Positions 5,068-58,615 are shown, counted from the first letter of the stretch. The stretch: 64,000 nucleotides of DNA from Escherichia coli (GCF_030384885.1 NZ_CP128613.1), one strand, 5' to 3'. The notes: generated by a model not told the origin, from the letters alone. Numbers and translations: made by a program.

Positions 5068-5100
5068 GGTATTAATCGCCTTTCCCCTCATGGGGAGGGA

Positions 5101-6645: not shown

Positions 6646-6889
6646 TGCGACAACCTCATACTCAAGAGTCAAAATTTGCGTAATTTTACTACAGCTGAAT
6701 CGATAAAATAGCCTCTGAAGATCAAAATATACGACCGCTCGCGGCAAGCCGATGCCAGATTTACGCTTTTTTTTCGTAGCGCCCCGCAAAATTGCATTCC
6801 AGTTAACGCGCTGGCTGTATTTGCCGCACCGCGCAGGTATACTCCTTTCCTGGTTTTTTTAATCACTACGTCGGGAGTTGTTACCCCCC

Positions 6890-7321
6890 ATGCAAGAAAT
6901 TATGCAATTTGTTGGCCGTCATCCCATACTGAGTATCGCCTGGATCGCGTTACTGGTGGCGGTTCTTGTGACTACGTTTAAGAGCCTGACCTCGAAAGTG
7001 AAGGTGATTACTCGTGGTGAAGCTACACGTCTGATCAACAAAGAAGACGCTGTGGTTGTGGATTTACGTCAGCGTGATGACTTCCGTAAAGGCCATATCG
7101 CAGGTTCTATCAATCTGTTGCCGAGCGAAATCAAAGCCAATAATGTTGGTGAGCTTGAGAAGCACAAAGACAAGCCGGTTATCGTGGTAGACGGTTCTGG
7201 CATGCAGTGCCAGGAGCCTGCAAACGCGCTGACGAAAGCAGGTTTTGCGCAAGTATTCGTGCTGAAAGAGGGCGTAGCTGGCTGGGCTGGCGAGAACTTG
7301 CCCCTGGTGCGCGGCAAATAA
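6890..7321 (+). CDS. yibN: Rhodanese-domain inner membrane protein
   Basis: 143 aa from ATG at 6890 ([26 protein letters not shown]..., one TM helix then rhodanese-like domain); GGGAG Shine-Dalgarno upstream; the track start at 6878 is a TTG. Confidence 0.85.
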
Positions 7322-7462
7322 TTTACCTGTCGTCTTTCATGATGCAGGCCGTTAGCTGCAATTAGGCCCCCTGAGACTTATTGTTATAAGCTTCTGGGGA
7401 CACTCCATTTTGCTGCCGCCCTGCAACATGAAATTTCAGGGTAAAAAAACAGGAGCTAATTT

Positions 7463-7714
7463 ATGGCCAATGTTGAAATCTATACCAAAGAAACCTGCCC
7501 GTATTGCCATCGTGCGAAAGCACTGCTGAGCAGCAAGGGTGTGAGTTTTCAGGAGTTGCCGATCGATGGCAACGCCGCTAAGCGTGAAGAGATGATCAAA
7601 CGCAGCGGTCGCACCACGGTTCCCCAGATTTTTATTGACGCACAGCACATTGGCGGCTGTGATGACTTGTATGCATTGGATGCACGTGGTGGACTGGATC
7701 CCCTGCTGAAATAA
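7463..7714 (+). CDS. grxC: Glutaredoxin 3
   Basis: 83 aa; CPYC active-site motif ([11 protein letters not shown]). Confidence 0.95.
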
Positions 7715-7776
7715 CGTGTGAACGTTGGCATTACATTGCGCAGTATTTAAGGACAACACTTAAGGGTTTTCGACAC

Positions 7777-8244
7777 ATGTCAGAACAAAACAACACTGAA
7801 ATGACTTTCCAGATCCAACGTATTTATACCAAGGATATCTCTTTCGAAGCGCCGAATGCGCCGCACGTTTTCCAGAAAGATTGGCAGCCAGAAGTTAAAC
7901 TTGATCTGGATACGGCATCTTCTCAACTGGCAGATGACGTTTACGAAGTGGTACTGCGTGTTACCGTAACGGCATCCCTGGGCGAAGAAACTGCGTTCCT
8001 GTGCGAAGTTCAGCAGGGCGGTATTTTCTCCATCGCGGGTATCGAAGGCACCCAGATGGCACATTGCCTGGGCGCGTACTGCCCGAACATTCTGTTCCCG
8101 TATGCTCGTGAGTGCATCACCAGCATGGTATCCCGCGGTACATTCCCGCAACTGAACCTTGCGCCGGTTAACTTCGATGCGCTGTTCATGAACTATTTGC
8201 AGCAGCAGGCTGGCGAAGGTACTGAAGAACATCAGGATGCCTGA
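7777..8244 (+). CDS. secB: Protein-export chaperone SecB
   Basis: 155 aa; [29 protein letters not shown]... recognised as SecB. Confidence 0.95.
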
Positions 8245-9263
8245 TGAACCAACGTAATGCTTCAATGACTGTGATCGGTGCCGGCTCGTACGGCACTGCT
8301 CTTGCCATCACCCTGGCAAGAAATGGCCACGAGGTTGTTCTCTGGGGCCATGACCCTGAACATATCGCGACGCTTGAACGCGACCGCTGTAACGCCGCGT
8401 TTCTCCCCGATGTGCCTTTTCCCGATACGCTCCATCTTGAAAGCGATCTCGCTACCGCACTGGCAGCCAGCCGTAATATTCTTGTCGTCGTGCCAAGCCA
8501 TGTCTTTGGTGAAGTGCTGCGCCAGATTAAACCGCTGATGCGCCCTGATGCGCGTCTGGTGTGGGCGACCAAAGGTCTGGAAGCGGAAACCGGACGTTTG
8601 TTACAGGACGTGGCGCGTGAGGCGTTAGGCGATCAAATTCCGCTGGCGGTTATCTCTGGCCCAACGTTTGCGAAAGAACTGGCGGCAGGTTTACCGACGG
8701 CTATTTCGTTGGCCTCTACCGACCAAACCTTTGCTGATGATCTTCAGCAGTTGCTGCACTGTGGTAAAAGTTTCCGCGTTTACAGCAACCCGGATTTCAT
8801 TGGCGTGCAACTTGGCGGCGCGGTGAAAAACGTCATTGCCATTGGCGCGGGGATGTCCGACGGTATCGGTTTTGGTGCGAATGCGCGTACGGCGCTGATC
8901 ACCCGAGGTCTGGCTGAAATGTCGCGTCTTGGCGCGGCGTTGGGGGCCGATCCTGCCACCTTTATGGGCATGGCGGGGCTGGGTGATCTGGTACTTACCT
9001 GTACCGACAACCAGTCGCGTAACCGCCGTTTTGGCATGATGCTCGGTCAGGGCATGGATGTACAAAGCGCGCAGGAGAAAATTGGTCAGGTGGTGGAAGG
9101 CTACCGCAATACGAAAGAAGTCCGCGAACTGGCGCATCGCTTCGGCGTTGAAATGCCAATAACCGAGGAAATTTATCAAGTATTATATTGCGGAAAAAAC
9201 GCGCGCGAGGCAGCATTGACGTTATTAGGTCGTGCACGCAAGGACGAGCGCAGCAGCCACTAA
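8244..9263 (+). CDS. gpsA: NAD(P)H-dependent glycerol-3-phosphate dehydrogenase
   Basis: 339 aa; N-terminal Rossmann motif [12 protein letters not shown]; start overlaps the secB stop. Confidence 0.95.
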
Positions 9264-9342
9264 ACCCAGGGAACCTTTGTTACCGCTATGACCCGGCCCG
9301 CGCAGAACGGGCCGGTCATTATCTCATCGTGTGGAGTAAGCA

Positions 9343-10164
9343 ATGTCGTGTGAAGAACTGGAAATTGTCTGGAACAATATTAAAGCTGAAGCCAGAACGC
9401 TGGCGGACTGTGAGCCAATGCTGGCCAGTTTTTACCACGCGACGCTACTCAAGCACGAAAACCTGGGCAGTGCACTGAGTTACATGTTGGCGAACAAGCT
9501 GTCATCGCCAATTATGCCTGCCATTGCTATCCGTGAAGTGGTGGAAGAAGCCTACGCCGCCGACCCGGAAATGATCGCTTCTGCGGCCTGTGATATTCAG
9601 GCAGTGCGTACCCGCGACCCGGCAGTCGATAAATACTCAACCCCATTGTTATATCTGAAAGGTTTTCATGCCTTGCAGGCCTATCGCATAGGTCACTGGC
9701 TGTGGAATCAGGGCCGTCGCGCACTGGCTATTTTTCTGCAAAACCAGGTTTCTGTGACGTTCCAGGTGGATATTCATCCGGCGGCAAAAATTGGTCGCGG
9801 TATCATGCTCGACCACGCGACGGGCATTGTGGTGGGTGAAACTGCGGTGATTGAAAATGACGTGTCGATTCTGCAATCCGTTACCCTTGGCGGTACGGGA
9901 AAATCTGGCGGCGACCGTCACCCGAAAATTCGTGAAGGCGTGATGATTGGCGCAGGTGCGAAAATTCTCGGTAATATTGAAGTTGGTCGCGGTGCGAAGA
10001 TTGGCGCAGGTTCCGTGGTGCTGCAACCGGTACCGCCACATACCACCGCCGCTGGCGTTCCGGCACGCATTGTCGGTAAACCAGACAGCGATAAGCCATC
10101 AATGGATATGGATCAGCATTTCAACGGCATTAACCATACGTTTGAATATGGGGATGGGATCTGA
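9343..10164 (+). CDS. cysE: Serine O-acetyltransferase
   Basis: 273 aa; hexapeptide-repeat left-handed beta-helix in the C-terminal half; recognised as CysE. Confidence 0.95.
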   Translation: MSCEELEIVWNNIKAEARTLADCEPMLASFYHATLLKHENLGSALSYMLANKLSSPIMPAIAIREVVEEAYAADPEMIASAACDIQAVRTRDPAVDKYSTPLLYLKGFHALQAYRIGHWLWNQGRRALAIFLQNQVSVTFQVDIHPAAKIGRGIMLDHATGIVVGETAVIENDVSILQSVTLGGTGKSGGDRHPKIREGVMIGAGAKILGNIEVGRGAKIGAGSVVLQPVPPHTTAAGVPARIVGKPDSDKPSMDMDQHFNGINHTFEYGDGI

Positions 10165-10178
10165 CGTCCTGTGATTGT

Positions 10179-10207
10179 GCCGGATGCGATGTAATCATCT
10201 ATCCGGC
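10179..10207. terminator. Stem-loop between convergent cysE and trmL (possible bidirectional terminator)
   Basis: Inverted repeat gccggat ... atccggc around a 15-nt loop, in the 52-bp gap between two convergent genes. Confidence 0.4.
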
Positions 10208-10216
10208 ATACAGTAA

Positions 10217-10690
10217 CTAATCTCTCAACACCGCTCCCGGATACCCCAGCTGTCGCCAGGCTTCATACACCACGACCGACACCGCATTGGACAGGTTCAT
10301 GCTGCGGCTGTCCGGCACCATTGGAATGCGAATTTTTTGTTCAGCGGGCAGGGCATCGAGAATGCTCGCGGGCAGGCCGCGTGTTTCCGGGCCAAACATC
10401 AGATAGTCGCCATCCTGATAACTTACGGCGCTGTGTGCGGGTGTGCCTTTCGTGGTGAGGGCAAACAGACGCTGGGGATTTTCTGCTTCCAGGAACGCAG
10501 CATAGTTATGATGACGCGTAACGGCGGTAAATTCGTGGTAGTCCAGTCCTGCGCGGCGCAGGCGCTTGTCGTCCCAGGCAAATCCCATCGGTTCGATGAT
10601 ATGCAGACGAAAGCCGGTATTAGCGCAAAGACGGATGATGTTGCCAGTATTTGGCGGAATTTCTGGTTCGTAAAGTACGATGTTTAGCAT
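10217..10690 (-). CDS. trmL: tRNA (cytidine/uridine-2'-O)-methyltransferase, SpoU/TrmH family
   Basis: 157 aa; [26 protein letters not shown]... SPOUT-class signature. Confidence 0.9.
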
Positions 10691-10699
10691 ACTGCCCCC

Positions 10700-10790
10700 T
10701 TAGTGCGGGGGCAGGATAGCAGAAAATTGAGAAGTGGTGCGGCCTTTTCCCCTCACCCCGGCCCTCTCCCCGGAGGGGCGAGGGGGAAAC
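10700..10790. repeat. GC-rich palindromic intergenic repeat
   Basis: cctcaccccggccctctccccggaggggcgaggggg: nested inverted repeats of the type found in E. coli intergenic repeat families. Confidence 0.4.
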
Positions 10791-10792
10791 GA

Positions 10793-11983
10793 CTATGCGG
10801 CATTCCCTTTCGCCATCGGAGCCAGCGCCGCAGGCAACTCTTTACCCAGCCCCTGCACCAGCGAATCTTGCGTAATTTCACTGATCGATTTTGCGCCAGT
10901 CAGTGTCATTGCCACTTTCATCTCTTTTTCGATCAGATTCAGCAGATTTGCCACGCCCGCTTGGCCCGCCGTTGCCAGCGCATACAGGAAAGCACGACCC
11001 AGTAGTACAGTATCGGCACCGAGTGCAATCATACGCACGACATCAAGCCCGTTACGAATGCCGCTATCTGCCAGAATGGCGATATCACCTTTCACCGCAT
11101 CTGCAATAGCAGGCAACGCACGGGCAGAAGAGAGTACACCGTCCAGCTGGCGGCCACCGTGGTTAGAAACCACAATGCCATCTGCGCCAAAACGTACCGC
11201 ATCACGCGCATCTTCTGGGTCGAGGATCCCTTTGATCACCATCGGGCCATCCCAGAAATCGCGGATCCACTCAAGGTCTTTCCATGAGATAGAAGGATCG
11301 AAGTTATTCCCTAGCCAGCCGATGTAATCTTCCAGTCCGGTCGGTTTGCCGAGATAAGCCGAGATATTACCGAGATCATGCGGACGACCATTCAGGCCCA
11401 CATCCCACGCCCATTGCGGATGCGTTACCGCCTGCAAGTAGCGGCGCATTGCCGCGTTCGGGCCGCTCATTCCAGAGTGCGCATCACGGTAACGCGCACC
11501 AGGCGTTGGCATATCCACAGTGAAGACCAGAGTTGAACAGCCTGCCGCTTTTGCACGCTCCAGCGCGTTACGCATAAAGCCGCGATCGCGCAGCACATAT
11601 AACTGGAACCACATCGGACGCTTGATGGCGGGGGCGACTTCTTCAATTGGGCAAACAGAAACGGTCGAGAGAGTAAACGGAATGCCATGTGCATCCGCTG
11701 CTTTTGCGGCCTGAACTTCGCCGCGTCGCGCATACATGCCACACAAACCTACCGGACCTAGCGCCACCGGCATCGACAATTTCTCATTAAACAGCGTCGT
11801 TTCCAGGCTTAAGTCGGACATGTTTTTCAGAATTCGCTGGCGCAGCGCCACCTCTGACAAATCTTCCACGTTGCGGCGCAGGGTGTATTCAGAATATGCC
11901 CCCCCATCCATATAGTGGAACAGGAATGGCGGCAGAATGCGTTGTGCTGCGGCGCGATAATCGCTGGCTGCGGAAATAATCAT
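10793..11983 (-). CDS. lldD: L-lactate dehydrogenase (FMN-dependent)
   Basis: 396 aa; alpha-hydroxy-acid oxidase family; last gene of the lldPRD operon. Confidence 0.95.
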
Positions 11984-23990: not shown

Positions 23991-25900
23991 TTACGACCTG
24001 CCAGCAGTTCCAGTACTTCATCTACGCTGGTGGTGTGCGCCAGACGCTCGATGACGGACTCATCATCCAGTGCGTTGGTCAGGCTGGTGATCACCTGAAT
24101 GTGCTCGTTGTTACGGGCAGCAATACCAATCACCAGGCGGGCAATGTCATCTTCTTCTTCACCGAAGCGCACGCCTTCCGGGTACTGGCAGAACACCACG
24201 CCCGTTTTCAGTACGCGATCTTTCGCTTCAACCGTACCGTGCGGTACCGCGATGGACTCACCCAGATAAGTCGGGGTCAGTTTTTCACGATCCAGCATTG
24301 CCTGAACGTATTCCGGCTCAACGTAACCACCTTTCACCAGCTGCTCGCCAGCAAAACGAATCGCTTCTTCTTTGGTGGCCGCTTTGCGACCGAGGAAGAT
24401 GTTTTCCGCACCCAGTTTGAAGAGGTTAGCACTGGAATCGTCAAAGCTGTCTTTCAGACTGTCTTTCACTTTTACTTCGTTTTCAGTATGGCGCTGGGCA
24501 GCAACCAGACGTTCGGTCAGGCTGGTGTACAGGCCGCTGTCGAGGAAGTTGGTCAGCGAAATATGCTGTGCCTGCGGAACCTGGCGCATAGCGCGTTCGG
24601 TCAGGTCACGGTGAGTGATGACCAGGTCCACATCTGGCGGCAGGTTGTTGATCGCGCTGTTAGTAACAGAAATCTGCGACAGACCTGCATCCTGAATTTT
24701 CTTACGCAGCACACCTGCGCCCATCGCACTGGAACCCATACCGGCATCACAGGCAACGATGATTTTACGGACGTGGCTCAGGTCGTTAGTCACATCGCCC
24801 GCAGACAGCGGAGACGCACCTTTAGACTCAGCTTTCATGTCCTGCATACGACGAGTTGCTGCTTCAATATCATCTTCATCTTTCACTTTGCTGGTTTTCA
24901 GCAGAATGGCAGAGACAACGAAGGAGACTGCCATCGCCGCACACACACCCGCGATGTTAGCGAAGTAAGCACCTTTTGGCGTCATCGCCAGTACCGCAAG
25001 GATAGAGCCCGGAGATGCCGGAGAAACCAGACCACCGCCCAGGATAGTCAGCGTGAACACGCCAGTCATACCGCCGAGGATAACGGCCAGAATCAGACGC
25101 GGATTCATCAGCACATACGGGAAGTAGATTTCGTGGATACCCCCCAGGAAGTGAATGATTGCCGCACCGCCCGCAGACTGTTTAGCGCTACCACGGCCAA
25201 AGAACATGTACGCCAGCAGAACACCCATACCCGGACCTGGGTTAGCTTCAATCAGGAAGAAGATGGATTTACCCAGTTCATGGGACTGCTGAATACCCAG
25301 CGGCGAGAAGATACCGTGGTTAATGGCGTTGTTGAGGAACAGGATTTTCGCCGGTTCAACAAAGATAGACGCCAGCGGCAGCATGTCATGGACAACCATG
25401 AAGTTAACGCCCGCAGCCAGCATTTTGGACAGGGCTTCAACAATTGGGCCAATGCCGAGGAACGCCAGAATAGCGAGGATCATCCCGATGATGCCAGCGG
25501 AGAAGTTATTCACCAGCATCTCAAAACCGGATTTGATCTTACCGTCTACCCAGCGGTCGAAGTGCTTAATGCACCAGCCGCCCAGCGGACCTGCAATCAT
25601 AGAACCGAGGAACATCGGCATATCTGCGCCGACGATAACGCCCATTGTGGTGATGGCACCGACTACGCCGCCACGTTCGCCGCCTACCAGCTTACCACCG
25701 GTATAACCGATCAGTAGTGGCAGGAGATAAGTGATCATCGGCCCGACCAGCTTCGCCAGCGTTTCGTTCGGTAACCACCCTGTTGGAATAAATAATGCGG
25801 TGATAATACCCCACGCGATAAACGCGCCGATATTTGGCATCACCATGTTGCTGAGGAAACGACCAAAGCTTTGCACTTTGATCTTAATATCGGATGACAT
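23987..25900 (-). CDS. mtlA: PTS mannitol-specific EIICBA component
   Basis: 637 aa; N-terminal polytopic EIIC, then EIIB and EIIA domains. Confidence 0.95.
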
Positions 25901-26043
25901 AAAAACACCCCTTCTTATGTTTGCTGTCGCGCAGGCTGGAAGCCCGAGGTTTTTTGTTAATGTGGCGGCAGAGGTAGCCGGACCTTGTGGATAGTGCGAA
26001 ATCTGGCACTGAATCGGTTAACTGTCCAGTCGACGGCTTTTTG

Positions 26044-26221
26044 TGTGATATGAATCACATAAATATAGGGGGTAGAGAGGTAATTGACGTGATATACATC
26101 ACAAAATACTTGTGTAAAAAAGCAACAAGACGACGATTTTCGCTAAAAATGGCATTTAAATGTGAGTAATGTCACATTTTTGTTTTGTTAGTTTGTTGAA
26201 TCTTTGTGATCTGAATCACAA
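26044..26221. promoter_or_regulatory. Cluster of CRP-like sites (TGTGA-N6-TCACA) upstream of mtlA
   Basis: tgtgatatgaatcaca (26044-26059), gtgatatacatcaca (26089-26103), tgtgagtaatgtcaca (26161-26176), tgtgatctgaatcaca (26206-26221); the mtl promoter is known to carry multiple CRP sites. Confidence 0.6.
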
Positions 26222-26436
26222 GATATTTTCTTACGGCGTTCACCTGATGTGATCTGCAGCATGTTATGCCTTCGTCATAAAATCGTTATGTAACTAAGCA
26301 ACTCATAACCTCTAAAAATTATTCTTTGGTGTTATGGCGAGAATCGCGAACCCGAATTATTGTCAAAATATCAGCCTGACTCCCTTCTGGCTGCCAGCCA
26401 AAAAACAACACCGATAAACGTGAATCCGAGGCAGAT

Positions 26437-26799
26437 ATGTTTCTAAACTATTTCGCGTTGGGAGTGCTGATCTTCGTCTTTCTGGTGATTTTTTATGGAA
26501 TCATCGCGATACATGACATCCCTTATCTGATTGCCAAAAAGCGCAATCACCCCCATGCCGACGCTATTCATACGGCGGGCTGGGTGAGCCTGTTTACTCT
26601 GCATGTTATCTGGCCGTTCCTGTGGATCTGGGCGACGCTCTATCAACCGGAGCGTGGCTGGGGTATGCAGTCACATGTTGCGTCGCAGGAGAAAGCGACT
26701 GACCCGGAAATCGCCGCACTTTCTGACCGAATTTCCCGGCTGGAGCATCAACTCGCCGCCGAGAAAAAGACTGACTATTCCACGTTCCCGGAGATCTAA
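26437..26799 (+). CDS. yibI: DUF3302-family inner membrane protein
   Basis: 120 aa; [45 protein letters not shown]...; about 90 percent identical over the first 80 aa to the second copy at 40909 (yiaW). Confidence 0.85.
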
Positions 26800-26801
26800 A
26801 T

Positions 26802-27938
26802 ATGGATCTATTGATTGTTTTAACTTACGTGGCGCTGGCGTGGGCGGTCTTTAAAATCTTCCGCATTCCGGTAAATCAGTGGACGCTGGCGACGGCGGCG
26901 CTGGGAGGCGTGTTTCTGGTGAGTGGTTTGATTTTGTTGATGAACTACAACCACCCTTACACTTTTACCGCACAGAAAGCGGTGATTGCTATTCCCATCA
27001 CGCCACAGGTGACGGGGATCGTGACTGAAGTCACTGACAAGAATAATCAGCTTATTCAGAAGGGCGAGGTGCTTTTTAAGCTCGACCCGGTACGTTATCA
27101 GGCGCGAGTCGACAGGCTTCAGGCTGACCTGATGACGGCGACGCATAATATAAAGACACTGCGCGCGCAGCTCACTGAAGCGCAAGCCAATACCACCCAG
27201 GTTTCAGCGGAGCGTGACCGCTTGTTTAAAAATTATCAACGTTACCTGAAAGGCAGCCAGGCGGCGGTAAATCCGTTCTCGGAACGTGACATCGACGATG
27301 CGCGGCAAAACTTCCTCGCGCAGGATGCGCTGGTGAAAGGTTCGGTGGCGGAACAGGCGCAAATCCAGAGCCAGCTCGACAGTATGGTTAACGGTGAGCA
27401 GTCGCAGATTGTCAGCTTAAGGGCGCAGCTTACTGAAGCAAAATATAACCTTGAGCAGACCGTCATTCGCGCGCCGAGCAATGGCTACGTTACTCAGGTA
27501 CTGATCCGCCCAGGTACATACGCAGCTGCCTTGCCGCTACGTCCGGTGATGGTTTTCATCCCCGAGCAAAAACGGCAAATTGTCGCCCAATTTCGGCAGA
27601 ACTCGCTGTTACGTCTGAAACCCGGCGATGATGCGGAAGTGGTGTTTAACGCGCTACCTGGGCAGGTGTTCCACGGCAAACTGACTAGTATTTTACCTGT
27701 CGTGCCAGGCGGTTCGTATCAGGCGCAGGGGGTACTGCAATCATTAACGGTCGTACCCGGCACGGACGGTGTGCTGGGAACCATCGAACTGGACCCTAAC
27801 GATGATATCGATGCCTTACCCGACGGCATCTACGCCCAGGTGGCAGTTTACTCCGACCATTTCAGCCATGTTTCGGTGATGCGGAAGGTGCTGCTAAGAA
27901 TGACCAGTTGGATGCATTATCTTTATTTGGATCATTGA
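26802..27938 (+). CDS. yibH: HlyD-family membrane fusion protein
   Basis: 378 aa; N-terminal TM helix, coiled-coil and barrel-sandwich regions; paralogue of the ORF at 41238 (yiaV). Confidence 0.85.
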
Positions 27939-28395
27939 GGGGGGCGGGGGAGATTATGGAACTTTGCTCCCTGCAAGGACTAATTATTTTTGCATATTAT
28001 TTCATCGGCTGTGATGATTTTTCGTTAATATCCATTATGTTAAGAAGTTCGGGATGAGTGTGAACTCATTGGATTTTTTATCCGTCTTGATCTGCCGAAG
28101 GATCAGACTATACATTGTCGAGATCGCAATGATGATATGAGTTGTTCCTCTGCCACGACTCTAATCAAAAAAGAGCAGGAGTGCTTTTCCATCTATTGCG
28201 ATGATGGCTTTATTATCTGAAGGATGACAATCACATTTAAAAATATATAATTTATAGATCACAATATAGGTTCATGGAATATATGTATACAACTATTTTT
28301 CTCTTCACTTTTAATTATCGCATTCATTATAACACTAAGTTAAAAAAACTCCTGGAGAGTGAGTTATTAATATATTTTTAAATATAATTAAGTTA

Positions 28396-28917
28396 TTATT
28401 CATCGATGCATTTTATAGAATCATCAATGGCTACAATAGTACTATTAACTCTCCAATTTATATTTTTATTATCATTGCAAATATTAACTGAATCTATATC
28501 AATGATTTTTCTATTTTTATCTTTTATTTTATTTACAGTTTCAATGCAATCAGCGACAAGTTGGTGTGGATTTAGATTCTTCAGATATGGTCTTATGATC
28601 TTTCCCTTGCTTAATAAATAGCATGTATAGGATTCGGAAAGTCCAGCATCTATTTTGTACATCATTATTCTAGATAAGGATGTGAGAAATGCCTTGTTAT
28701 CATTAGCAGCCATATATGCCAGTCCGAGTTCAGCCTCTGCGGCTTTACATGAAAAATAGCTAAATGAACACGCTTTTCGTCCCTCTTGGGTACTGGCTGA
28801 TATTAGTGCCCATAATATTGCCTTGTCTGCCAAATCCAACTCTCTCTGAAATTGGTTTACAGTAACTGCATTCGCAGAAATAGAGAAAAAAAGCACAATT
28901 GTTAATAACCTTGCCAT
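28396..28917 (-). CDS. Secreted or periplasmic protein; candidate immunity protein for the orphan Rhs C-terminal toxin
   Basis: 173 aa with cleavable signal peptide (MARLLTIVLFFSISANA); its start codon lies 4 nt after the stop of the orphan rhs-CT ORF, same strand. Confidence 0.45.
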   Translation of the reverse strand: MARLLTIVLFFSISANAVTVNQFQRELDLADKAILWALISASTQEGRKACSFSYFSCKAAEAELGLAYMAANDNKAFLTSLSRIMMYKIDAGLSESYTCYLLSKGKIIRPYLKNLNPHQLVADCIETVNKIKDKNRKIIDIDSVNICNDNKNINWRVNSTIVAIDDSIKCIDE

Positions 28918-28921
28918 ATTT

Positions 28922-30334
28922 CTAGTCCGTCACTGTTAATGTGCTATCTGGCTCTGAAAATATTAGCCCATTTAATTTTTGCATGTCATTAGATGAACCA
29001 GTTATACAACCCTCGGAACAGAATCGAGGTCCTAAAGATGGACCAAAAGCGTTTAAACAACTATGTGTTAAAAATCCATCACGATTATACGTTTCTGTAT
29101 TTGCTGACGGTACTAAACGTATACCATTAGGTTTTCTATTAGTTGCTCCAGGACCATTAACATTCCAGGTCCATACCCCTTGAGGTATTGGGCCTCTATT
29201 TTGTAAGTGTGTACAACCAGGATTATTTTTACATTGCATATTATTACCATTATTACCAGAGGCGACTGAAATAGTAAGCACACCATAAGAATTATCATCA
29301 CTTGGCGTATCTGAAACGCATGAAAGCATACCTAAAGTTATGCTGTATAAACAGGTCGCTAATCCCAACGGGTCAATATCAGTTATCGGATTCAACGGAT
29401 ACTGATAAAAATTCCATCCCCCCTTCAGCCCAATCGGATCCTGAGTGATATACCGCCCCTGCAGCGGGTCATAATAGCGGTGGCGGTTGTAATACAGGCC
29501 GGACTCCTCATCATACTGCTGACCCGGCAGGCGGATGAGCTGCTGCAGCTGGTGCGGGTTCTCTTCATTCAGCAGGTTGCCCCATTCATCATATTCTGCG
29601 TACCACGCTGTTGCCCCTTCCGTGCTGACAAGCGCCAGCGGCAGGCCGCGATGGTCGCAGTGGTACAGGTGGATTTTTCGCGCCGGCGTGTACACCGGGT
29701 CCATCTGGTTTTGCATCTGCTCCACCGTCAGGCCGCACGATGCCAGCCAGCGGCGGCTTTCCTCACTCACCCGGTCAGCCAGGATTTCACTTTCCAGCCG
29801 GTCGAGCATCTGCACCAGCACCGGCGGGAACACCACATGGCCTCCGTCTTCGCCGCCGGACTGCTGAAGGGCATCCGCCAGGCTGCGGCGCTGCGTTTTC
29901 GCCAGCTCACCGGTGGCGGTTTCGACCCTGATGAGTGGCGTGAAACTTCCCGGCAGGTATACCGTCTGGATGCGGGTTCTGTCGTTCTGTATCGTGGTCA
30001 GCCGGTCGCCATCCCAGCCGTACCAGGTCACTTCCGGTTTCCTTGACAGCGACATCCAGCCCGTCAGGTCCCGTTCACGCCGCCACACCCGTTTTGCCAC
30101 CCTGCGGCCCAGCGGGTCGTAAAGATAGCGACTTTCGACCAGCGGCTCTGCATATTGTGTCCGCGTGTAGTGCACCAGCCGGTGCCGGCTGTCGTAATGG
30201 TACCGGTGAGTCCGCTCATCATCCGTGCGGATAACCCCTTCCGGGATGAGGTCGGTTTTCTCCGTCAGCCTGCCGTGACGGTCATACCGGTAAAGATAGT
30301 GCGCGTCACGGGCGATACGGTTATCCGGCCACAT
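28922..30334 (-). CDS. Orphan rhs 3' fragment: distal Rhs core followed by an alternative C-terminal toxin domain
   Basis: 470 aa; the first ~325 aa are nearly identical to the distal core of the rhs gene at 30774-32915 up to the DPxGL boundary ([30 protein letters not shown]); the remaining ~145 aa are unrelated to the main gene. Confidence 0.75.
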
Positions 30335-30410
30335 GCTGAGGGTGCTGTCCGGGTGCAGCTCCGGGTCGGGCAGGCGGTTACCTGCCGGGTCTGTTGCATA
30401 CGGGATATCA
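29386..30410. repeat. Direct repeat copy A (~1.0 kb) of the rhs distal core
   Basis: Identical spurious plus-strand ORFs in the track at 29480 and 31347 (also 29535/31402, 29740/31607, 29913/31780, 30043/31910) give a constant 1867-bp offset; homology ends where the DPxGL-encoding sequence ends. Confidence 0.85.
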
Positions 30411-30447
30411 ATGCCCAGGTTACATATAATAATAAGAGCAATTAACT

Positions 30448-30774
30448 TTATTTATTTATAATGCGCTTACTTAATACAAACCATTGAATATACCCTCCTG
30501 ACAGAAAATAAAGCCATATTATTATCGCCATAATATACTTGCTATCAATTCTTACGCCAATAATGTCTGAAATACTCCCTATAAATATTAGAGCAATAAA
30601 GAATACTATGCCTGTTGGAAAACATATTACCATCATTCCATAAGACATGAGACTAATTAACTCGCTCACATCACGAGTGGAGTCTAATAGTGAAAGTCTA
30701 TGCATGGAAAAGAATAGCATTAAAAGTGATAACGCCAGCCATATAGCTCTGAATGAAAAAATAATATATTTCAT
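30448..30774 (-). CDS. Small three-helix membrane protein; candidate immunity protein for the main Rhs C-terminal toxin
   Basis: 108 aa, three hydrophobic segments; start codon overlaps the rhs stop by 1 nt (TAATG), same strand. Confidence 0.45.
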
Positions 30775-32915
30775 TACATCACTCCGGTGAATACAAATCT
30801 AATAAAACGTCCAATGTTATTTCCGGAGCACTTCATCTTACATGTTTCTAAAGAATCATTAGACCAGTCTTGGCAGTTTTTAAATAGCCCTAAATTTATA
30901 GGTGTGAATATATCAGGCAATACAGAATAACGCGGCCTTACCTCTTTAAATTTCCCTTTTAAACAGTTCTCCACACAACTATTATCGGTTTCAACGAGGT
31001 CACAACGGCCAGCAGCTTCTTTTGTATCATTACTTGCTTTACCTGGCCCCCATAGACCATCTCCTTTTGATTCTCCCCGTTGGTCTTGGCCACCACAAGT
31101 ATAGTCCCCTTTACCATCTGGGACACAAAGATATTGATGATAGAACGGATTCCCCCATATATCTGGACCGCTTCTTTCACCAGTTCCGCCCATTGAATGC
31201 AGTGGCTTAATGCATTTTAGTGTTTCTAATCCTAATGGATCTATATTTGAGATCGGATTCAACGGATACTGATAAAAATTCCATCCCCCCTTCAGCCCAA
31301 TCGGATCCTGAGTGATATACCGCCCCTGCAGCGGGTCATAATAGCGGTGGCGGTTGTAATACAGGCCGGACTCCTCATCATACTGCTGACCCGGCAGGCG
31401 GATGAGCTGCTGCAGCTGGTGCGGGTTCTCTTCATTCAGCAGGTTGCCCCATTCATCATATTCTGCGTACCACGCTGTTGCCCCTTCCGTGCTGACAAGC
31501 GCCAGCGGCAGGCCGCGATGGTCGCAGTGGTACAGGTGGATTTTTCGCGCCGGCGTGTACACCGGGTCCATCTGGTTTTGCATCTGCTCCACCGTCAGGC
31601 CGCACGATGCCAGCCAGCGGCGGCTTTCCTCACTCACCCGGTCAGCCAGGATTTCACTTTCCAGCCGGTCGAGCATCTGCACCAGCACCGGCGGGAACAC
31701 CACATGGCCTCCGTCTTCGCCGCCGGACTGCTGAAGGGCATCCGCCAGGCTGCGGCGCTGCGTTTTCGCCAGCTCACCGGTGGCGGTTTCGACCCTGATG
31801 AGTGGCGTGAAACTTCCCGGCAGGTATACCGTCTGGATGCGGGTTCTGTCGTTCTGTATCGTGGTCAGCCGGTCGCCATCCCAGCCGTACCAGGTCACTT
31901 CCGGTTTCCTTGACAGCGACATCCAGCCCGTCAGGTCCCGTTCACGCCGCCACACCCGTTTTGCCACCCTGCGGCCCAGCGGGTCGTAAAGATAGCGACT
32001 TTCGACCAGCGGCTCTGCATATTGTGTCCGCGTGTAGTGCACCAGCCGGTGCCGGCTGTCGTAATGGTACCGGTGAGTCCGCTCATCATCCGTGCGGATA
32101 ACCCCTTCCGGGATGAGGTCGGTTTTCTCCGTCAGCCTGCCGTGACGGTCATACCGGTAAAGATAGTGCGCGTCACGTGTTATACGGTTATCCGGCCACA
32201 TGCTGAGGGTGCTGTCCGGGTGCAGCTCCGGGTCAGGCAGGCGGTTACCTGCCGGGTCCGTGGCATACGGGATGCGGATATCCAGATTTGAGGTGGTGGT
32301 GTGGACGCCGGTCAGCCTGCCGGTGGTGCTGTAGCTGTAACTCCGGGTCTGGCGCGGGCTGCTGATGCGGATGAGTTCGCCGTTGTCGTTCCAGGTGTAA
32401 TCGCGGTCATACTGCAGGCTGTTCAGGTGCTGGCTCTGTAACTGCCCGGCAGGGGTATAAGCGGTGGTGAGTTCATAACGGCCGAAGCTGCGCAGCGTTT
32501 CCCGGTGCAGGCGGTCGCGGGTGAAATCCACCAGCGGTGTGTCGCCGAGTTTCATCCCTGCCAGGTAACCACTGCCATAAGTCAGCCATTCCACGGCGGG
32601 CAGGCTGTCCGGTATACAGCGGTTCGCCAGCCCCTGCGCGTTGTACGCATGTCTGGTTTCATGCTGCCAGAGCAGTTCATTCGTCTGCGGGTGATGCACC
32701 GTCTGGCGCTCACCGGTCAGGGCAAGGTCGGTTTCGCCGGGAAGGACCTTTGCACCGAGCAACGGATTGACCGGATGACCGGACGTCACCCCGCCGGGGC
32801 ACACCGAACAGGCCACGCTGGTGGGGGCACCAATACGTACCCCGGCTGAACCCTGAACAATGCTACCGCCATACTGCGTCATGTCGCCCTGACGCGCCGC
32901 CGGTTTTCCGCTCAT
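30774..32915 (-). CDS. Rhs-family polymorphic toxin, short form: PAAR-type N-terminus, distal YD-repeat core, DPxGL boundary, cysteine-rich C-terminal domain
   Basis: 713 aa; [22 protein letters not shown]... (literal PAAR motif); YD repeats ([46 protein letters not shown]); conserved core end PxxxxDPxGL; AAGGA Shine-Dalgarno before the ATG at 32915. Confidence 0.8.
31253..32277. repeat. Direct repeat copy B (~1.0 kb) of the rhs distal core
   Basis: Partner of 29386-30410; see that entry. Confidence 0.85.
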
Positions 32916-33143
32916 CTGCTCATCCTTGTTTTATCGGGTTATTTGTCTGCTGACAGGCGAAACCCTACAGATTTATAAGAAAGCCTTAAGTGAGATATCT
33001 GTCAGATAAGAACAATTAGGAAAATATTTATATCACCATGATAAATATGTGATTTATTGGGAGGTAACAAACCATCAACATTTTCTGCCCTTTTTCCCAT
33101 CACCAGGCCATACTGATATTTTTCCTCGCACAAAGGACTCGGC

Positions 33144-33752
33144 ATGAAACTCGTCGGTAGCTACACCAGCCCGTTTGTACGCAAACTTTCTATTCTGTTG
33201 TTAGAAAAGGGCATAACTTTCGAATTTATTAATGAACTGCCCTATAACGCGGACAACGGCGTGGCGCAATTTAACCCGTTAGGGAAAGTGCCGGTGCTGG
33301 TGACTGAAGAGGGCGAATGTTGGTTTGATTCGCCGATCATCGCTGAATATATTGAATTAATGAATGTCGCTCCGGCGATGTTGCCGCGCGATCCGCTGGA
33401 GTCGTTGCGAGTGCGCAAAATTGAGGCGCTGGCGGATGGCATTATGGATGCCGGGCTGGTATCGGTGCGTGAACAGGCACGTCCGGCGGCGCAGCAGTCT
33501 GAAGATGAATTGTTACGCCAGCGGGAGAAAATCAACCGCAGTCTGGATGTGCTGGAAGGATATCTGGTCGATGGCACGCTCAAAACCGATATGGTCAACC
33601 TGGCGACTATCGCCATTGCCTGTGCCGTCGGATATCTCAATTTCCGCCGCGTTGCGCCAGGCTGGTGTGTCGACCGCCCACACTTAGTCAAACTGGTCGA
33701 AAACCTGTTTAGCCGCGAAAGTTTTGCCCGCACCGAACCGCCAAAGGCTTGA
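33144..33752 (+). CDS. yibF: Glutathione S-transferase family protein
   Basis: 202 aa; GST N- and C-terminal domain layout; divergent from the rhs gene. Confidence 0.9.
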
Positions 33753-33849
33753 TGCGCGATATGTCCTCCTGACCCATCTCACGTTACAATCCGTGGTTAT
33801 GTTAAACGCCCTTCTCCGTGTGAGAGGGCCTTGATCAACCAGGTTTCCT

Positions 33850-35241
33850 ATGACAACCGAAACGCGTTCCCTCTATAGTCAACTTCCGGCTATTGATCGC
33901 TTATTGCGCGATAGCTCTTTCCTTTCTTTGCGTGATACCTATGGTCACACCCGCGTGGTGGAGTTGCTGCGTCAGATGCTTGACGAAGCGCGAGAAGTGA
34001 TTCGTGACAACCAGACGCTGCCCGCATGGTGTGAAAACTGGGCGCAAGAAGTCGATGCCCGGCTGACGAAGGAGGCGCAGAGCGCGCTGCGTCCGGTGAT
34101 CAACCTGACGGGAACCGTGCTGCATACCAATCTTGGGCGAGCTTTACAGGCAGAAGCCGCGGTGGAAGCCGTTGCGCAGGCTATGCGTTCGCCAGTGACC
34201 CTCGAGTACGATCTGGACGACGCCGGACGCGGACATCGCGATCGGGCGCTGGCACAGCTGCTGTGCCGCATTACGGGGGCGGAAGATGCCTGTATCGTTA
34301 ATAACAATGCGGCGGCGGTATTGTTGATGTTGGCGGCCACTGCCAGTGGGAAAGAGGTGGTGGTATCTCGCGGCGAACTGGTGGAGATTGGCGGCGCGTT
34401 TCGTATTCCTGATGTCATGCGTCAGGCAGGCTGCACCCTACACGAAGTGGGGACCACCAATCGCACGCACGCTAATGATTATCGCCAGGCGGTGAATGAA
34501 AATACCGCTCTGTTGATGAAAGTACATACCAGTAACTACAGCATTCAGGGGTTCACCAAAGCGATAGATGAAGCTGAACTGGTGGCGCTCGGCAAAGAGC
34601 TGGATGTTCCAGTGGTGACGGATTTAGGCAGTGGCTCGCTAGTCGATCTTAGCCAGTACGGTTTGCCGAAAGAGCCAATGCCGCAGGAGTTGATTGCGGC
34701 GGGCGTCAGTCTGGTGAGCTTCTCCGGCGACAAGCTGTTAGGCGGGCCGCAGGCAGGAATTATTGTTGGTAAAAAAGAGATGATCGCCCGCCTGCAAAGC
34801 CATCCACTGAAGCGTGCATTACGCGCGGATAAAATGACCCTCGCGGCGCTGGAAGCCACGTTGCGTCTTTATTTACACCCTGAGGCGCTGAGTGAAAAAT
34901 TACCGACCCTGCGTCTGCTTACCCGCAGCGCAGAGGTCATTCAAATCCAGGCACAACGTTTACAGGCCCCCCTTGCCGCACATTACGGCGCGGAGTTCGC
35001 GGTACAGGTTATGCCATGTCTTTCGCAGATTGGCAGTGGTTCGCTGCCGGTTGATCGCCTGCCGAGCGCGGCATTAACGTTTACACCCCATGATGGACGC
35101 GGTAGCCACCTTGAGTCATTAGCCGCCCGCTGGCGTGAATTGCCAGTGCCGGTGATTGGTCGTATTTATGACGGACGATTGTGGCTGGATTTACGCTGCC
35201 TTGAAGATGAGCAACGGTTTTTGGAGATGTTGTTGAAATGA
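33850..35241 (+). CDS. selA: L-seryl-tRNA(Sec) selenium transferase
   Basis: 463 aa; recognised as SelA; overlaps the selB start. Confidence 0.95.
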
Positions 35242-37082
35242 TTATTGCGACTGCCGGACACGTTGACCACGGCAAAACAACCTTATTGCAGGCGATTACT
35301 GGCGTAAATGCCGACCGTCTGCCGGAAGAAAAAAAGCGCGGTATGACCATCGATCTCGGCTATGCCTACTGGCCGCAGTCAGATGGTCGCGTGCCTGGTT
35401 TTATCGACGTTCCCGGCCATGAAAAATTTCTTTCCAACATGCTGGCGGGCGTCGGGGGAATCGATCACGCGCTGTTGGTGGTGGCGTGCGATGACGGCGT
35501 GATGGCACAGACTCGTGAGCATCTGGCGATTTTGCAGCTGACCGGTAACCCGATGCTGACAGTGGCGCTGACCAAAGCCGATCGCGTGGACGAAGCGCGT
35601 GTTGATGAGGTTGAACGCCAGGTAAAGGAGGTGCTGCGGGAATACGGTTTTGCTGAGGCAAAACTGTTTATCACCGCAGCAACCGAAGGCCGGGGAATTG
35701 ATGCCCTGCGCGAGCATCTGCTTCAGTTACCAGAACGTGAACACGCCAGCCAACATAGCTTCCGCCTCGCTATCGACCGTGCTTTTACCGTAAAAGGTGC
35801 CGGGCTGGTCGTCACCGGTACGGCGTTAAGTGGGGAAGTGAAGGTAGGCGATTCACTCTGGCTGACTGGTGTAAATAAACCGATGCGCGTGCGTGCGCTA
35901 CATGCGCAAAATCAGCCAACAGAAACTGCCCATGCCGGGCAGCGTATCGCGCTTAACATCGCGGGTGATGCGGAAAAAGAGCAGATTAACCGTGGCGACT
36001 GGCTGCTTGCCGATGCGCCGCCGGAGCCGTTCACACGGGTGATTGTCGAGCTTCAAACCCATACACCGCTGACCCAGTGGCAGCCGCTGCATATTCACCA
36101 CGCCGCCAGCCACGTCACGGGACGCGTTTCGCTGCTGGAAGATAACCTTGCCGAGTTGGTGTTCGACACGCCGCTGTGGCTGGCAGATAACGATCGCTTA
36201 GTGCTACGCGATATCTCGGCCCGCAACACGCTGGCGGGGGCGCGCGTGGTGATGCTTAACCCGCCGCGTCGCGGTAAACGTAAGCCGGAATATCTGCAAT
36301 GGCTGGCGTCTCTTGCACAGGCGCAGAGCGATGCCGATGCGTTAGCTATTCATCTGGAACGCGGAGCGGTTAACCTTGCTGATTTCGCCTGGGCGCGCCA
36401 GCTCAACGGCGAAGGGATGCGTGAACTGCTGCAGCAACCGGGCTATATTCAGGCCGGTTATAGCTTGTTGAATGCGCCGGTTGCCGCTCGTTGGCAGCGT
36501 AAAATTCTCGATACCCTGGCGACTTATCATGAGCAGCATCGCGATGAACCAGGTCCTGGGCGCGAGCGTCTGCGGCGCATGGCGTTGCCAATGGAAGATG
36601 AAGCGCTGGTGCTGTTGCTGATTGAAAAGATGCGCGAAAGCGGCGACATCCTCAGTCATCACGGTTGGCTGCATCTGCCGGATCATAAAGCGGGATTCAG
36701 CGAAGAGCAGCAGGCTATCTGGCAAAAAGCGGAGCCGCTGTTTGGTGACGAGCCGTGGTGGGTGCGTGACCTGGCAAAAGAGACGGGAACCGACGAGCAG
36801 GCAATGCGTTTGACGCTACGCCAGGCGGCCCAACAGGGGATAATTACCGCGATCGTTAAAGATCGTTATTACCGTAACGATCGGATTGTCGAGTTTGCCA
36901 ATATGATCCGCGATCTCGATCAGGAATGTGGTTCAACCTGCGCGGCGGATTTCCGCGATCGCTTAGGTGTAGGCCGAAAGCTGGCAATTCAAATTCTGGA
37001 ATATTTTGACCGTATTGGCTTTACGCGTCGCCGTGGAAATGATCATTTATTGCGCGACGCATTATTATTTCCCGAAAAATAA
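35238..37082 (+). CDS. selB: Selenocysteine-specific translation elongation factor
   Basis: 614 aa; GTPase P-loop [11 protein letters not shown] at the N-terminus; winged-helix C-terminal extension. Confidence 0.95.
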
Positions 37083-41237: not shown

Positions 41238-42374
41238 ATGGATTTACTGATTATTTTGACCTATGTGGCTTTCGCATGGGCAATGTTTAAGATCTTCAAA
41301 ATTCCTGTAAATAAATGGACCATTCCCACCGCGGCCCTGGGTGGCATATTTATTGTCAGCGGTCTAATTCTGTTAATGAACTATAACCATCCGTATACCT
41401 TTAAAGCGCAAAAAGCGGTTATTTCTATTCCTGTTGTCCCGCAGGTGACAGGCGTGGTGATCGAAGTGACGGACAAGAAAAATACGCTGATTAAAAAAGG
41501 TGAGGTGCTATTTCGACTGGACCCGACGCGTTATCAGGCGCGGGTGGATCGGCTGATGGCGGATATCGTTACCGCAGAACATAAACAGCGGGCGTTGGGC
41601 GCAGAGTTAGATGAGATGGCGGCGAATACTCAGCAGGCAAAGGCCACGCGGGATAAATTCGCTAAAGAGTACCAGCGTTACGCACGCGGCAGCCAGGCGA
41701 AAGTAAACCCGTTTTCAGAACGCGATATTGATGTGGCGCGGCAAAATTATCTGGCGCAGGAAGCCTCCGTAAAGTCATCGGCGGCGGAACAAAAACAGAT
41801 CCAGAGCCAGCTGGATAGCCTGGTGTTGGGTGAACATTCTCAAATCGCCAGCCTGAAAGCGCAGCTCGCGGAAGCAAAATATAACCTTGAGCAGACGATA
41901 GTGCGTGCGCCGAGCGATGGTTATGTGACCCAAGTGCTGATTCGTCCGGGTACCTATGCCGCATCGCTGCCGCTACGTCCTGTGATGGTGTTTATACCCG
42001 ATCAGAAACGACAAATTGTGGCGCAGTTCCGTCAGAACTCCTTGCTGCGACTGGCTCCCGGCGATGATGCGGAAGTGGTGTTTAATGCTCTGCCAGGTAA
42101 GGTATTCAGCGGTAAGCTGGCAGCCATTAGTCCAGCTGTTCCCGGCGGAGCTTATCAGTCGACCGGCACCTTACAGACGTTAAACACAGCACCGGGTTCA
42201 GATGGCGTTATAGCGACCATTGAACTGGATGAGCACACTGAGTTGAGCGCTTTACCAGACGGTATTTACGCCCAGGTGGCGGTTTACTCTGATCATTTCA
42301 GCCATGTCTCGGTGATGCGCAAAGTGCTGTTACGCATGACCAGTTGGGTGCATTACCTTTATCTCGATCATTAA
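41238..42374 (+). CDS. yiaV: HlyD-family membrane fusion protein
   Basis: 378 aa; paralogue of yibH, same domain layout. Confidence 0.85.
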
Positions 42375-44229: not shown

Positions 44230-44345
44230 CGGCTGGCCTACGCTCTCGCACTGACCTTCAGGCTTGATAAGACGCGTTAAGCGTCGCATCAGGCAATGTG
44301 CACCCTACGTTGGATGCGGCGCGAGCGCCTTATCCAACCTACGGA
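44230..44345. repeat. REP/BIME elements
   Basis: gcctgatgcgacgcttaacgcgtcttatcaagcc and ggatgcggcgcgagcgccttatccaacctacgg, between yiaT and the GH127 gene. Confidence 0.55.
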
Positions 44346-58509: not shown

Positions 58510-58615
58510 TTATGCCGGATGCGGCTTAAACGCCTTATCCGGCCTACAAATTCTTCCAAATTCAATATATTGCAGAAATGATGTAGGCCTGATAAGCGTA
58601 GCGCATCAGGCAATT
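58510..58615. repeat. REP/BIME elements
   Basis: gccggatgcggcttaaacgccttatccggcctaca ... taggcctgataagcgtagcgcatcaggca, between convergent ysaA and avtA. Confidence 0.6.

Follow-up and report, generated by a model that had tools for sequence, protein, structure and literature searches.

The chromosome of Escherichia coli NZ_CP128613.1 (GCF_030384885.1) carries an rhs locus at positions 28,396–32,915 of the 64,000-nucleotide stretch analysed here, which is referred to below as the window. Two different toxin/immunity modules lie at this locus, and a direct repeat of about 1 kb connects them. The question raised by this arrangement is whether the toxin of the main rhs gene can be exchanged for that of the orphan rhs fragment lying downstream of it. 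According to the original prediction, homologous recombination between the repeat copies would delete the resident toxin and immunity genes and fuse the orphan toxin onto the main gene. The predicted fusion, shortened by 1,867 bp, exists in the sister strain 2013C-4282; in the strain of the window itself a usable switch onto the main gene is not to be expected, as the carrier lacks 684 codons and the fusion would be crippled. The locus is very probably an Rhs polymorphic-toxin locus of the ordinary E. coli kind, situated at the rhsA position, a two-module array with a published recombination mechanism and a crippled carrier gene.

Architecture of the locus and the direct core repeat

The locus is situated between yibI-yibH (26437–27938, plus strand) and yibF-selA-selB (from 33144 onward, plus strand), which is the chromosomal position of K-12 rhsA. 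All four rhs-related open reading frames (ORFs) are on the minus strand, with the boundaries originally proposed. The locus is composed as follows:

28396–28917, minus strand: Imm57-family immunity gene, 173 amino acids (aa); Pfam Imm57 (PF15596), 'Imm57 family immunity protein' in RefSeq relatives
28922–30334, minus strand: orphan rhs fragment ORF
28922–29358, minus strand: orphan toxin tip, Tlde1-like L,D-transpeptidase/carboxypeptidase-fold domain, 145 aa plus stop; predicted target peptidoglycan
29359–30406, minus strand: orphan copy of the rhs core 3′ end, copy 2 of the direct repeat, 1,048 bp (self-BLAST; NCBIfam RHS_core positions 937–1261)
30311–30392, minus strand: distal sites of the orphan core, K-12 ybfO type
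30407–30447, minus strand: 41-nt spacer from the ybfB stop codon to the orphan core fragment, the same junction as in the K-12 rhsC-ybfB-ybfO locus
30448–30774, minus strand: ybfB, 108 aa, three hydrophobic segments, candidate membrane immunity protein; 'protein YbfB' in annotated relatives
30774–32915, minus strand: whole main ORF, 713 aa, a deletion derivative of a 1,397-aa RhsC-type protein
30774–31225, minus strand: resident toxin tip, cysteine-rich K-12 RhsC-type C-terminal domain, 150 aa, predicted permuted papain-like cysteine hydrolase
31226–32273, minus strand: main-gene copy of the rhs core 3′ end, copy 1 of the direct repeat, 1,048 bp, including the Rhs-associated core and the DPLGL autoproteolysis region
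32274–32720, minus strand: remaining main-gene core from the repeat to the deletion junction, 100% identical to strain 2013C-4282
32713–32721, minus strand: junction of the in-frame internal deletion of 2,052 bp (684 codons), from alignment to intact genes
32722–32915, minus strand: N-terminal Rhs remnant of about 65 aa, with the start codon and the first ~20 residues of DUF6531

The anatomy and the homologies listed, the deletion and the natural recombinant in a relative described below were observed directly, and RefSeq annotation of relatives already names the components of the locus. The GC content is 60–66% in the rhs cores and 30–40% in the toxin tips, a composition classic for Rhs. A GC-rich RHS core, a DPLGL boundary with AT-rich tips and a downstream partner gene for each tip are all present, as in other Rhs polymorphic toxins of the enterobacterial RhsA-C/F subfamily. 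A distinct tip with a conserved partner follows each repeat copy, which confirms the two different modules first proposed.

The self-alignment revealed one direct repeat, 29359–30406 against 31226–32273. Its two copies, of 1,048 bp each and offset by 1,867 bp, align without gaps and differ at 14 positions (98.66% identity). The near-exact core duplication of about 1 kb was predicted correctly, its coordinates (29386–30410 and 31253–32277) being off by about 27 nt, and substantial nucleotide divergence between the copies was not found. The mismatches fall in two clusters, eight toxin-proximal (29366–29384) and six at the far end (30311–30395), separated by a perfectly identical tract of 926 bp (29385–30310). 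In both proteins, the repeat and the match to the NCBIfam RHS_core model end together, directly after DPLGL (residue 563 of the main ORF and residue 325 of the orphan ORF), and the tips differ immediately afterwards; the copies thus diverge at the DPxGL boundary, as had been suggested. The Rhs-associated core TIGR03696 was detected in both ORFs with similar significance (E = 1.5e-24 in the main and 2e-24 in the orphan). At the other end, the core homology of the orphan reaches 30406, past the first in-frame ATG of the ORF at 30334. The 5′ end of the orphan core has no start codon, and relatives carry the annotation 'partial pseudogene'.

A natural recombinant in a sister strain

In strain 2013C-4282, a full-length Rhs protein is fused directly to the Tlde1 tip and followed by Imm57, and both the RhsC tip and ybfB are absent from the locus. 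At the 14 diagnostic sites this strain possesses the orphan-type base at 8/8 toxin-proximal positions and the main-type base at 6/6 distal positions. This indicates a single crossover within the 926-bp identical tract. The two strains are near-clonal: the 20,488 bp of the downstream flank contain 2 mismatches between them (99.99% identity), and the core from the repeat to the deletion junction contains none.

The exact two-module adjacency, at about 100% identity and with an intact 1,397-aa gene, was found in nine complete genomes. One-piece fusions were found in 2013C-4282, in Ec73552 (98.9%) and in three diverged strains, PE164, F2_81 and E105 (94.5%). For the one-module state, only the one-piece matches among the 60 listed are usable, which gives at least five genomes. 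The composite query miscounts this state, joining short orphan fragments of K-12-type arrays into places of at least 80% (1,945 genomes).

These comparisons show the two-module and one-module states to be related by a single homologous exchange in a near-clonal lineage. In the two-module state, module 1 comprises the rhs core, the RhsC-type tip and the translationally coupled ybfB, and module 2 the 3′ end of the core, the Tlde1-like tip and Imm57; a single RecA-type crossover between the core repeats would interconvert this state and the core-Tlde1 one-module state. It is a clean natural case of two near-clonal E. coli strains that differ by exactly one crossover swapping an Rhs-carried toxin, and it supports the view of orphan modules as a usable toxin reserve in E. 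coli, as in Salmonella. Switching by this mechanism is known from the literature (Jackson et al. 2009, PMC2935791; Koskiniemi et al. 2014, PMC3967940), and no new question is opened by the present case.

The deletion in the main rhs gene

The main gene was originally described as a PAAR-containing rhs gene at 30774–32915. An ORF does occupy these coordinates, but it is not intact. Strains 6409 and EC26, the closest two-module relatives, have the same layout with a 1,397-aa rhsC-type gene. The window aligns to intact relatives in two segments, 25000–32721 and 32713–36000, and a segment of 2,052 bp is absent between them with the reading frame kept (684 codons relative to strains 6409 and 2013C-4282). 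The endpoints of the deletion carry the microhomology CCGGTCAGG / CCGGGCAGG, matching at 8/9 nt. According to Pfam, the intact protein contains DUF6531 at residues 46–123, followed by RHS repeats. The protein of the window retains residues 1–65 and RHS_core model positions 758–1261, and the deletion has taken the greater part of DUF6531 and some two thirds of the YD shell (684 of ~1,250 core residues). The main ORF scores 1,175 against the curated cut-off of 2,000 for NCBIfam RHS_core (E = 0) and also matches RHS_repeat and PF03527; a 713-aa ORF falls short of the full-length core (about 1,250 aa) of a closed shell.

The PAAR assignment could not be upheld. The PAAR_motif matches (E = 0.36 in the protein of the window and 0.24 in the intact homologue) cover 19 residues of a 70-position model and are not significant; the N-terminus of the main Rhs protein is DUF6531. 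No vgrG or hcp gene is annotated within ±20 kb of the locus in relatives, where the neighbours are yibF/selAB and yibH/yibI/mtl. Neither a significant PAAR domain nor linkage to vgrG or to a type VI secretion system (T6SS), the marks of a PAAR-Rhs spike-tip effector of the T6SS, was seen within the region.

Rhs proteins are reported to form a closed YD cocoon around the toxin, with autoproteolysis, and to need the full YD spiral for it (PMC8636562, PMC8765631). The loss of the shell and of DUF6531 makes it unlikely that the 713-aa protein loads and delivers its toxin. The carrier is probably delivery-dead, with the present toxin not deliverable in this strain, and a switch would give an equally crippled fusion; neither the present nor the switched toxin would be likely to be encapsulated. 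The practical consequence of the crippled carrier is probably limited to immunity. Most plausibly, the remaining use of the locus is immunity, possibly along with internal expression in a toxin/antitoxin-like manner.

The exact 713-aa protein has no match among 15 billion catalogued proteins. The search with the junction peptide found no second copy of the junction; it returned only proteins under 110 aa and is not exhaustive. In the comparison of the window with strain 6409, all 15 mismatches across 25000–32716 fall in a 158-bp core stretch, 32524–32681. A gene-conversion patch beside the deletion in the window was considered and rejected: the window is 100% identical to 2013C-4282 there, and the patch, a short recombination or gene-conversion tract, belongs to 6409.

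Recurrence of the deletion

Strain CP8-3_Sichuan has a deletion of identical size (2,052 bp) with an identical junction in a K-12-type rhsA allele. To the left and right of the junction, the CP8-3 sequence matches intact K-12 rhsA without a mismatch; the window agrees equally well with intact 2013C-4282 on its left side and with strain 6409 on its right side. Between the two deleted alleles there are 11 + 11 differences, some of them 3–13 nt from the junction. These allele-specific differences flanking the junction indicate that the deletion arose twice, independently; transfer of the deletion allele between strains was rejected on the same grounds, CP8-3 being identical to K-12 rhsA up to the junction on either side. 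The CP8-3 copy, an annotated pseudogene, has also lost 1 bp directly upstream of its start codon.

In two draft genomes, this 5′ breakpoint at nt ~196 (ETD[L/I]AL|) is joined in frame to other sites, in one to nt 1346 (383 codons deleted) and in the other to nt 3100 (968 codons deleted). The downstream deletion sites start with CTGAC, often within GRLT-type ends of YD repeats. The motif CTG[AC]C[CG]GG occurs 11 times per gene; so small a set of sites would make the recurrence less surprising, though it does not account for the preference for nt ~196. This position may be a deletion hotspot in rhs cores, and recurrent in-frame breakpoints of this kind are of possible interest to specialists.

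It was also considered whether the recurrent in-frame deletion (from nt ~196, ETD[L/I]AL|PG, to 'CTGACC/GRLT' sites at nt 1346, 2247 twice, and 3100) represents a selected 'mini-Rhs' state. If true, such a route would disarm delivery yet keep the start codon, the autoprotease region, the toxin and the coupled immunity gene; we consider selection of this state improbable. K-12 rhsE was rejected as a precedent of such a state, being a 5′-truncated core without a fused N-terminus. Its core (17707–19743 of the sequence examined) begins ~20 codons upstream of the nt 2247 site, GRLTGERQ. The segment retained in K-12 rhsE is again roughly the last third of the core.

Toxin tips and their partner genes

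The small membrane ORF predicted to be translationally coupled to the main rhs gene is ybfB: the stop codon of rhs and the start codon of ybfB overlap by 1 nt as TAATG, and the product has three hydrophobic segments. The attached tip is 99–100% identical to the K-12 RhsC tip. It has no sequence match in Pfam, NCBIfam or the PDB (phmmer against PDB sequences returned nothing useful), and its homologues, nearly all enterobacterial, keep nine cysteines and the motifs PLH, HQY, GGQDQ and NCQDW. As a lead rather than an assignment, the tip is predicted to be a permuted papain-like cysteine hydrolase of the NlpC/P60-LRAT-PPPDE type. This fold-level prediction for the uncharacterised toxin tip of K-12 RhsC may be of specialist interest. 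YbfB has no match in Pfam or NCBIfam, the latter having no YbfB model. Among 5,426 complete E. coli genomes, the tip and ybfB form a contiguous stretch in 2,535. In Buttiauxella, the gene directly downstream of an RhsC-type tip (71% identical) encodes a YbfB homologue (35% identity, E = 4e-19), and the two genes again overlap by 1 nt. YbfB appears to be a candidate membrane immunity protein for the RhsC-type toxin. In strain 6409, a second copy of the RhsC tip and ybfB is present elsewhere in the genome; such a copy would keep immunity after a switch, like the duplication in the Salmonella model (PMC3967940).

For the orphan tip, Pfam gives a match to Tlde1_dom (E = 4.6e-6), and the tip shows the L,D-transpeptidase fold of the Tlde1 (DUF2778) effectors; its homologues in Ralstonia, Paraburkholderia and Acidobacteriaceae are also Rhs tips. 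The residues H99-x15-S115-E116-G117-C118 are invariant in 11 homologues. They resemble the catalytic motif of Tlde1a, HXX14-17-(S/T)HGCh (PMC9638812), with the second His replaced by Glu and with a pLDDT below 50 for residues 103–115 of the model. Tlde1a in the PDB was not matched by the orphan tip at the sequence level with phmmer, which found nothing useful among PDB sequences. The tip is predicted to target peptidoglycan. In contrast to Tlde1a/Tldi1a of Salmonella (PMC9638812), the domain is here the C-terminal tip of an Rhs protein and not a stand-alone effector, and the immunity protein belongs to the Imm57 family; the Glu in place of the second His of (S/T)HGC is a further difference from Tlde1a.

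The Imm57 gene starts 4 nt after the stop codon of the orphan, and its product matches PF15596 over the full length of the model (positions 2–100 of 100, E = 3.7e-44); NCBIfam holds no Imm57 model. The N-terminus of this protein carries a signal-peptide-like segment, MARLLTIVLFFSISANA, which fits a toxin acting in the periplasm. The Imm57 protein is a predicted periplasmic immunity protein for the Tlde1-like orphan toxin. The tip and Imm57 are contiguous in 3,487 of the 5,426 complete genomes (64%), and Imm57 is the terminal element adjoining yibH in most E. coli; the K-12 copy has a frameshift and lies behind yibA, yibG and decayed fragments. In Ralstonia, 3 nt separate a Tlde1_dom gene from the Imm57 gene downstream of it (34% identity, E = 4e-25). 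Together with the pair in Buttiauxella, this agrees with the original view of the downstream ORFs as conserved partners of the tips.

Origin of the arrangement and comparison with known systems

The segment 29387–32713 of the window is colinear, at 96.6% identity, with the K-12/HB101 rhsC-ybfB-ybfO locus near kdp, the junction between ybfB and the orphan included. At five of the six distal diagnostic sites, the orphan has the ybfO-type base. The query for the ybfB-orphan junction also picked up the K-12-type rhsC-ybfB-ybfO locus (2,651 genomes), an overlap that proved informative. The simplest reading is that a cassette of the rhsC-locus type (core, RhsC tip, ybfB and the 5′ end of the next core fragment) would have been placed before the ancestral, resident Tlde1/Imm57 tip. 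The exchange would have proceeded through core homology on both sides, with the 926-bp tract later homogenised or identical from the start. In strain XH990 (4399–13260 of the sequence examined), rhsC/ybfB, an rhsB fragment with yhhH, a yibA pseudogene and the orphan/Imm57 pair are stacked. Other strains have three or more modules at the locus, suggesting repeated displacement before the same terminal Imm57 element.

The locus shares its position (yibF/selA, yibH/yibI) and the terminal Imm57 element with the K-12 rhsA locus (rhsA-yibA-yibJ-yibG-...-yibH), and module 1 with the ybfB-to-orphan junction is shared with the K-12 rhsC locus (rhsC-ybfB-ybfO-ybfC). Unlike at K-12 rhsA, the attached tip is of the RhsC type with ybfB and not the type-34 tip with yibA, and the yibJ/yibG module is absent; the content had indeed been said to differ from the yibA/yibJ/yibG arrangement of K-12. 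Besides, the Tlde1 tip and Imm57 are intact in the window, and the core is internally deleted.

By its repeat geometry and by the natural recombinant, the locus classifies as a main/orphan rhs array of the type described by Koskiniemi et al. 2014 (PMC3967940), where the rhs-main and rhs-orphan of Salmonella recombine across 522 bp at 95% identity and the chimera is selected. As in Salmonella Typhimurium STM0291/STM0292 (PMC3967940), an rhs gene and its immunity gene are followed by an orphan core fragment with a second toxin/immunity pair, and recombination in the shared core fuses the orphan tip and deletes the main tip with its immunity gene. The repeat exceeds that of Salmonella in both length (1,048 against 522 bp) and identity (98.7% against 95%), and the recombinant is a natural polymorphism between near-clonal strains rather than a product of evolved cultures. 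The main gene has the 684-codon shell deletion, and no T6SS genes are linked to it within the 64-kb window.

Jackson et al. 2009 (PMC2935791) described arrays of displaced tips in which, within a strain, the core fragments do not differ between attached and dissociated tips, and proposed excision and insertion by homologous recombination via circular intermediates. The present locus resembles their model in the dissociated tips downstream of the attached one and in the movement of tips between loci through core homology. It differs in that the cassette can be traced to the rhsC-ybfB-ybfO architecture and in that both end-states are found in sister strains; the model itself is unchanged.

Alternative explanations

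Some points weigh against the reading given above. The diagnostic sites are symmetrical, with deletion from two modules and insertion or allelic replacement into one giving the same pattern; the recombination is seen as a sequence difference between strains; and the loss of delivery is inferred from Rhs cocoon structures. The toxin activities and the direction and frequency of the exchange are likewise a matter of inference. It is possible, and we hold it so tentatively, that the one-module state (core-Tlde1-Imm57) is ancestral and that the RhsC-tip/ybfB cassette was inserted by Campbell-type integration of a circle or by allelic replacement, the repeat being a scar of the acquisition. An integration would leave the same bases at the diagnostic sites as an excision, the distal bases of the orphan are of the rhsC-locus (ybfO) type and foreign to the resident core, and Imm57 is a conserved terminal element of the locus. 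One-module fusions also occur in diverged lineages at 94.5% (PE164, F2_81, E105), and an insertion of this kind was proposed by Jackson et al. 2009 (PMC2935791). Among the nearest relatives, however, the two-module state is the commoner one (9 genomes vs 2), and the perfect identity over 926 bp requires a donor identical to the recipient or later homogenisation. Over evolutionary time both directions are compatible. It is somewhat doubtful that the tips are not weapons at all and the locus is an immunity store or a selfish toxin-antitoxin remnant, with the toxins expressed, if at all, from internal promoters and checked by YbfB and Imm57, in the manner of Salmonella. Such a role would suit the shell deletion of the main gene, the orphan, which is without a start context and counts as a pseudogene in the annotation of relatives, and the promoter-like sites upstream of Imm57 and of the orphan; in K-12, only a frameshifted Imm57 is kept. 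Starsta et al. 2020 (PMC7043789) reported Rhs tips with internal promoters, including a P2 promoter in E. coli, and a toxin-antitoxin-like behaviour. For the present locus, the number of sites in the promoter scan exceeds that in shuffled controls only slightly (14 sites vs 8.0 ± 3.3).

That the 713-aa protein still works as an effector or has acquired a new role is unlikely in our estimation. The part retained comprises the 65 N-terminal residues, the shell's last third, and the toxin with the autoprotease region; the deletion is in frame and leaves an intact ORF, a second allele acquired it independently, and the 5′ breakpoint recurs in further in-frame deletions. Yet most of DUF6531 and ~684 of ~1,250 core residues are gone, and known Rhs cocoons are reported to need the full YD spiral to enclose the toxin (PMC8636562, PMC8765631). 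The CP8-3 copy is itself damaged just before its start codon and annotated as a pseudogene, and the exact protein is absent from the 15 billion catalogued. An assembly artefact, in which the repeat, the deletion or both would come from misassembled repetitive rhs sequence, is highly improbable. Rhs cores are multi-copy and draft contigs often break within them, but the identical two-module layout is present in nine independent complete genomes, the deletion endpoints share 8/9 nt only, far below the overlap lengths used by assemblers, and the same junction is found in an independent complete genome (CP8-3).

Other features of the window

The rhs locus is flanked by two paralogous gene pairs of the HlyD-family/DUF3302 type, yibH with yibI and yiaV with yiaW, at ~74% DNA identity; the yibH and yiaV paralogues (27252–27936 and 41688–42372) are 14 kb apart. 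A gene for a YadA-like adhesin contains a 213-bp tandem repeat at 17475–18361 (4.2 copies, 95% matches). This gene is 5,240 bp long in strain 6409 and 5,880 bp long in 2013C-4282, which indicates that the number of repeats differs between close relatives. Two small RNA families were matched at the Rfam gathering threshold: naRNA4 (RF02564) at 44261–44339 on the minus strand with 67.8 bits, and ES036 (RF02751) at 58548–58590 on the plus strand with 45.3 bits.

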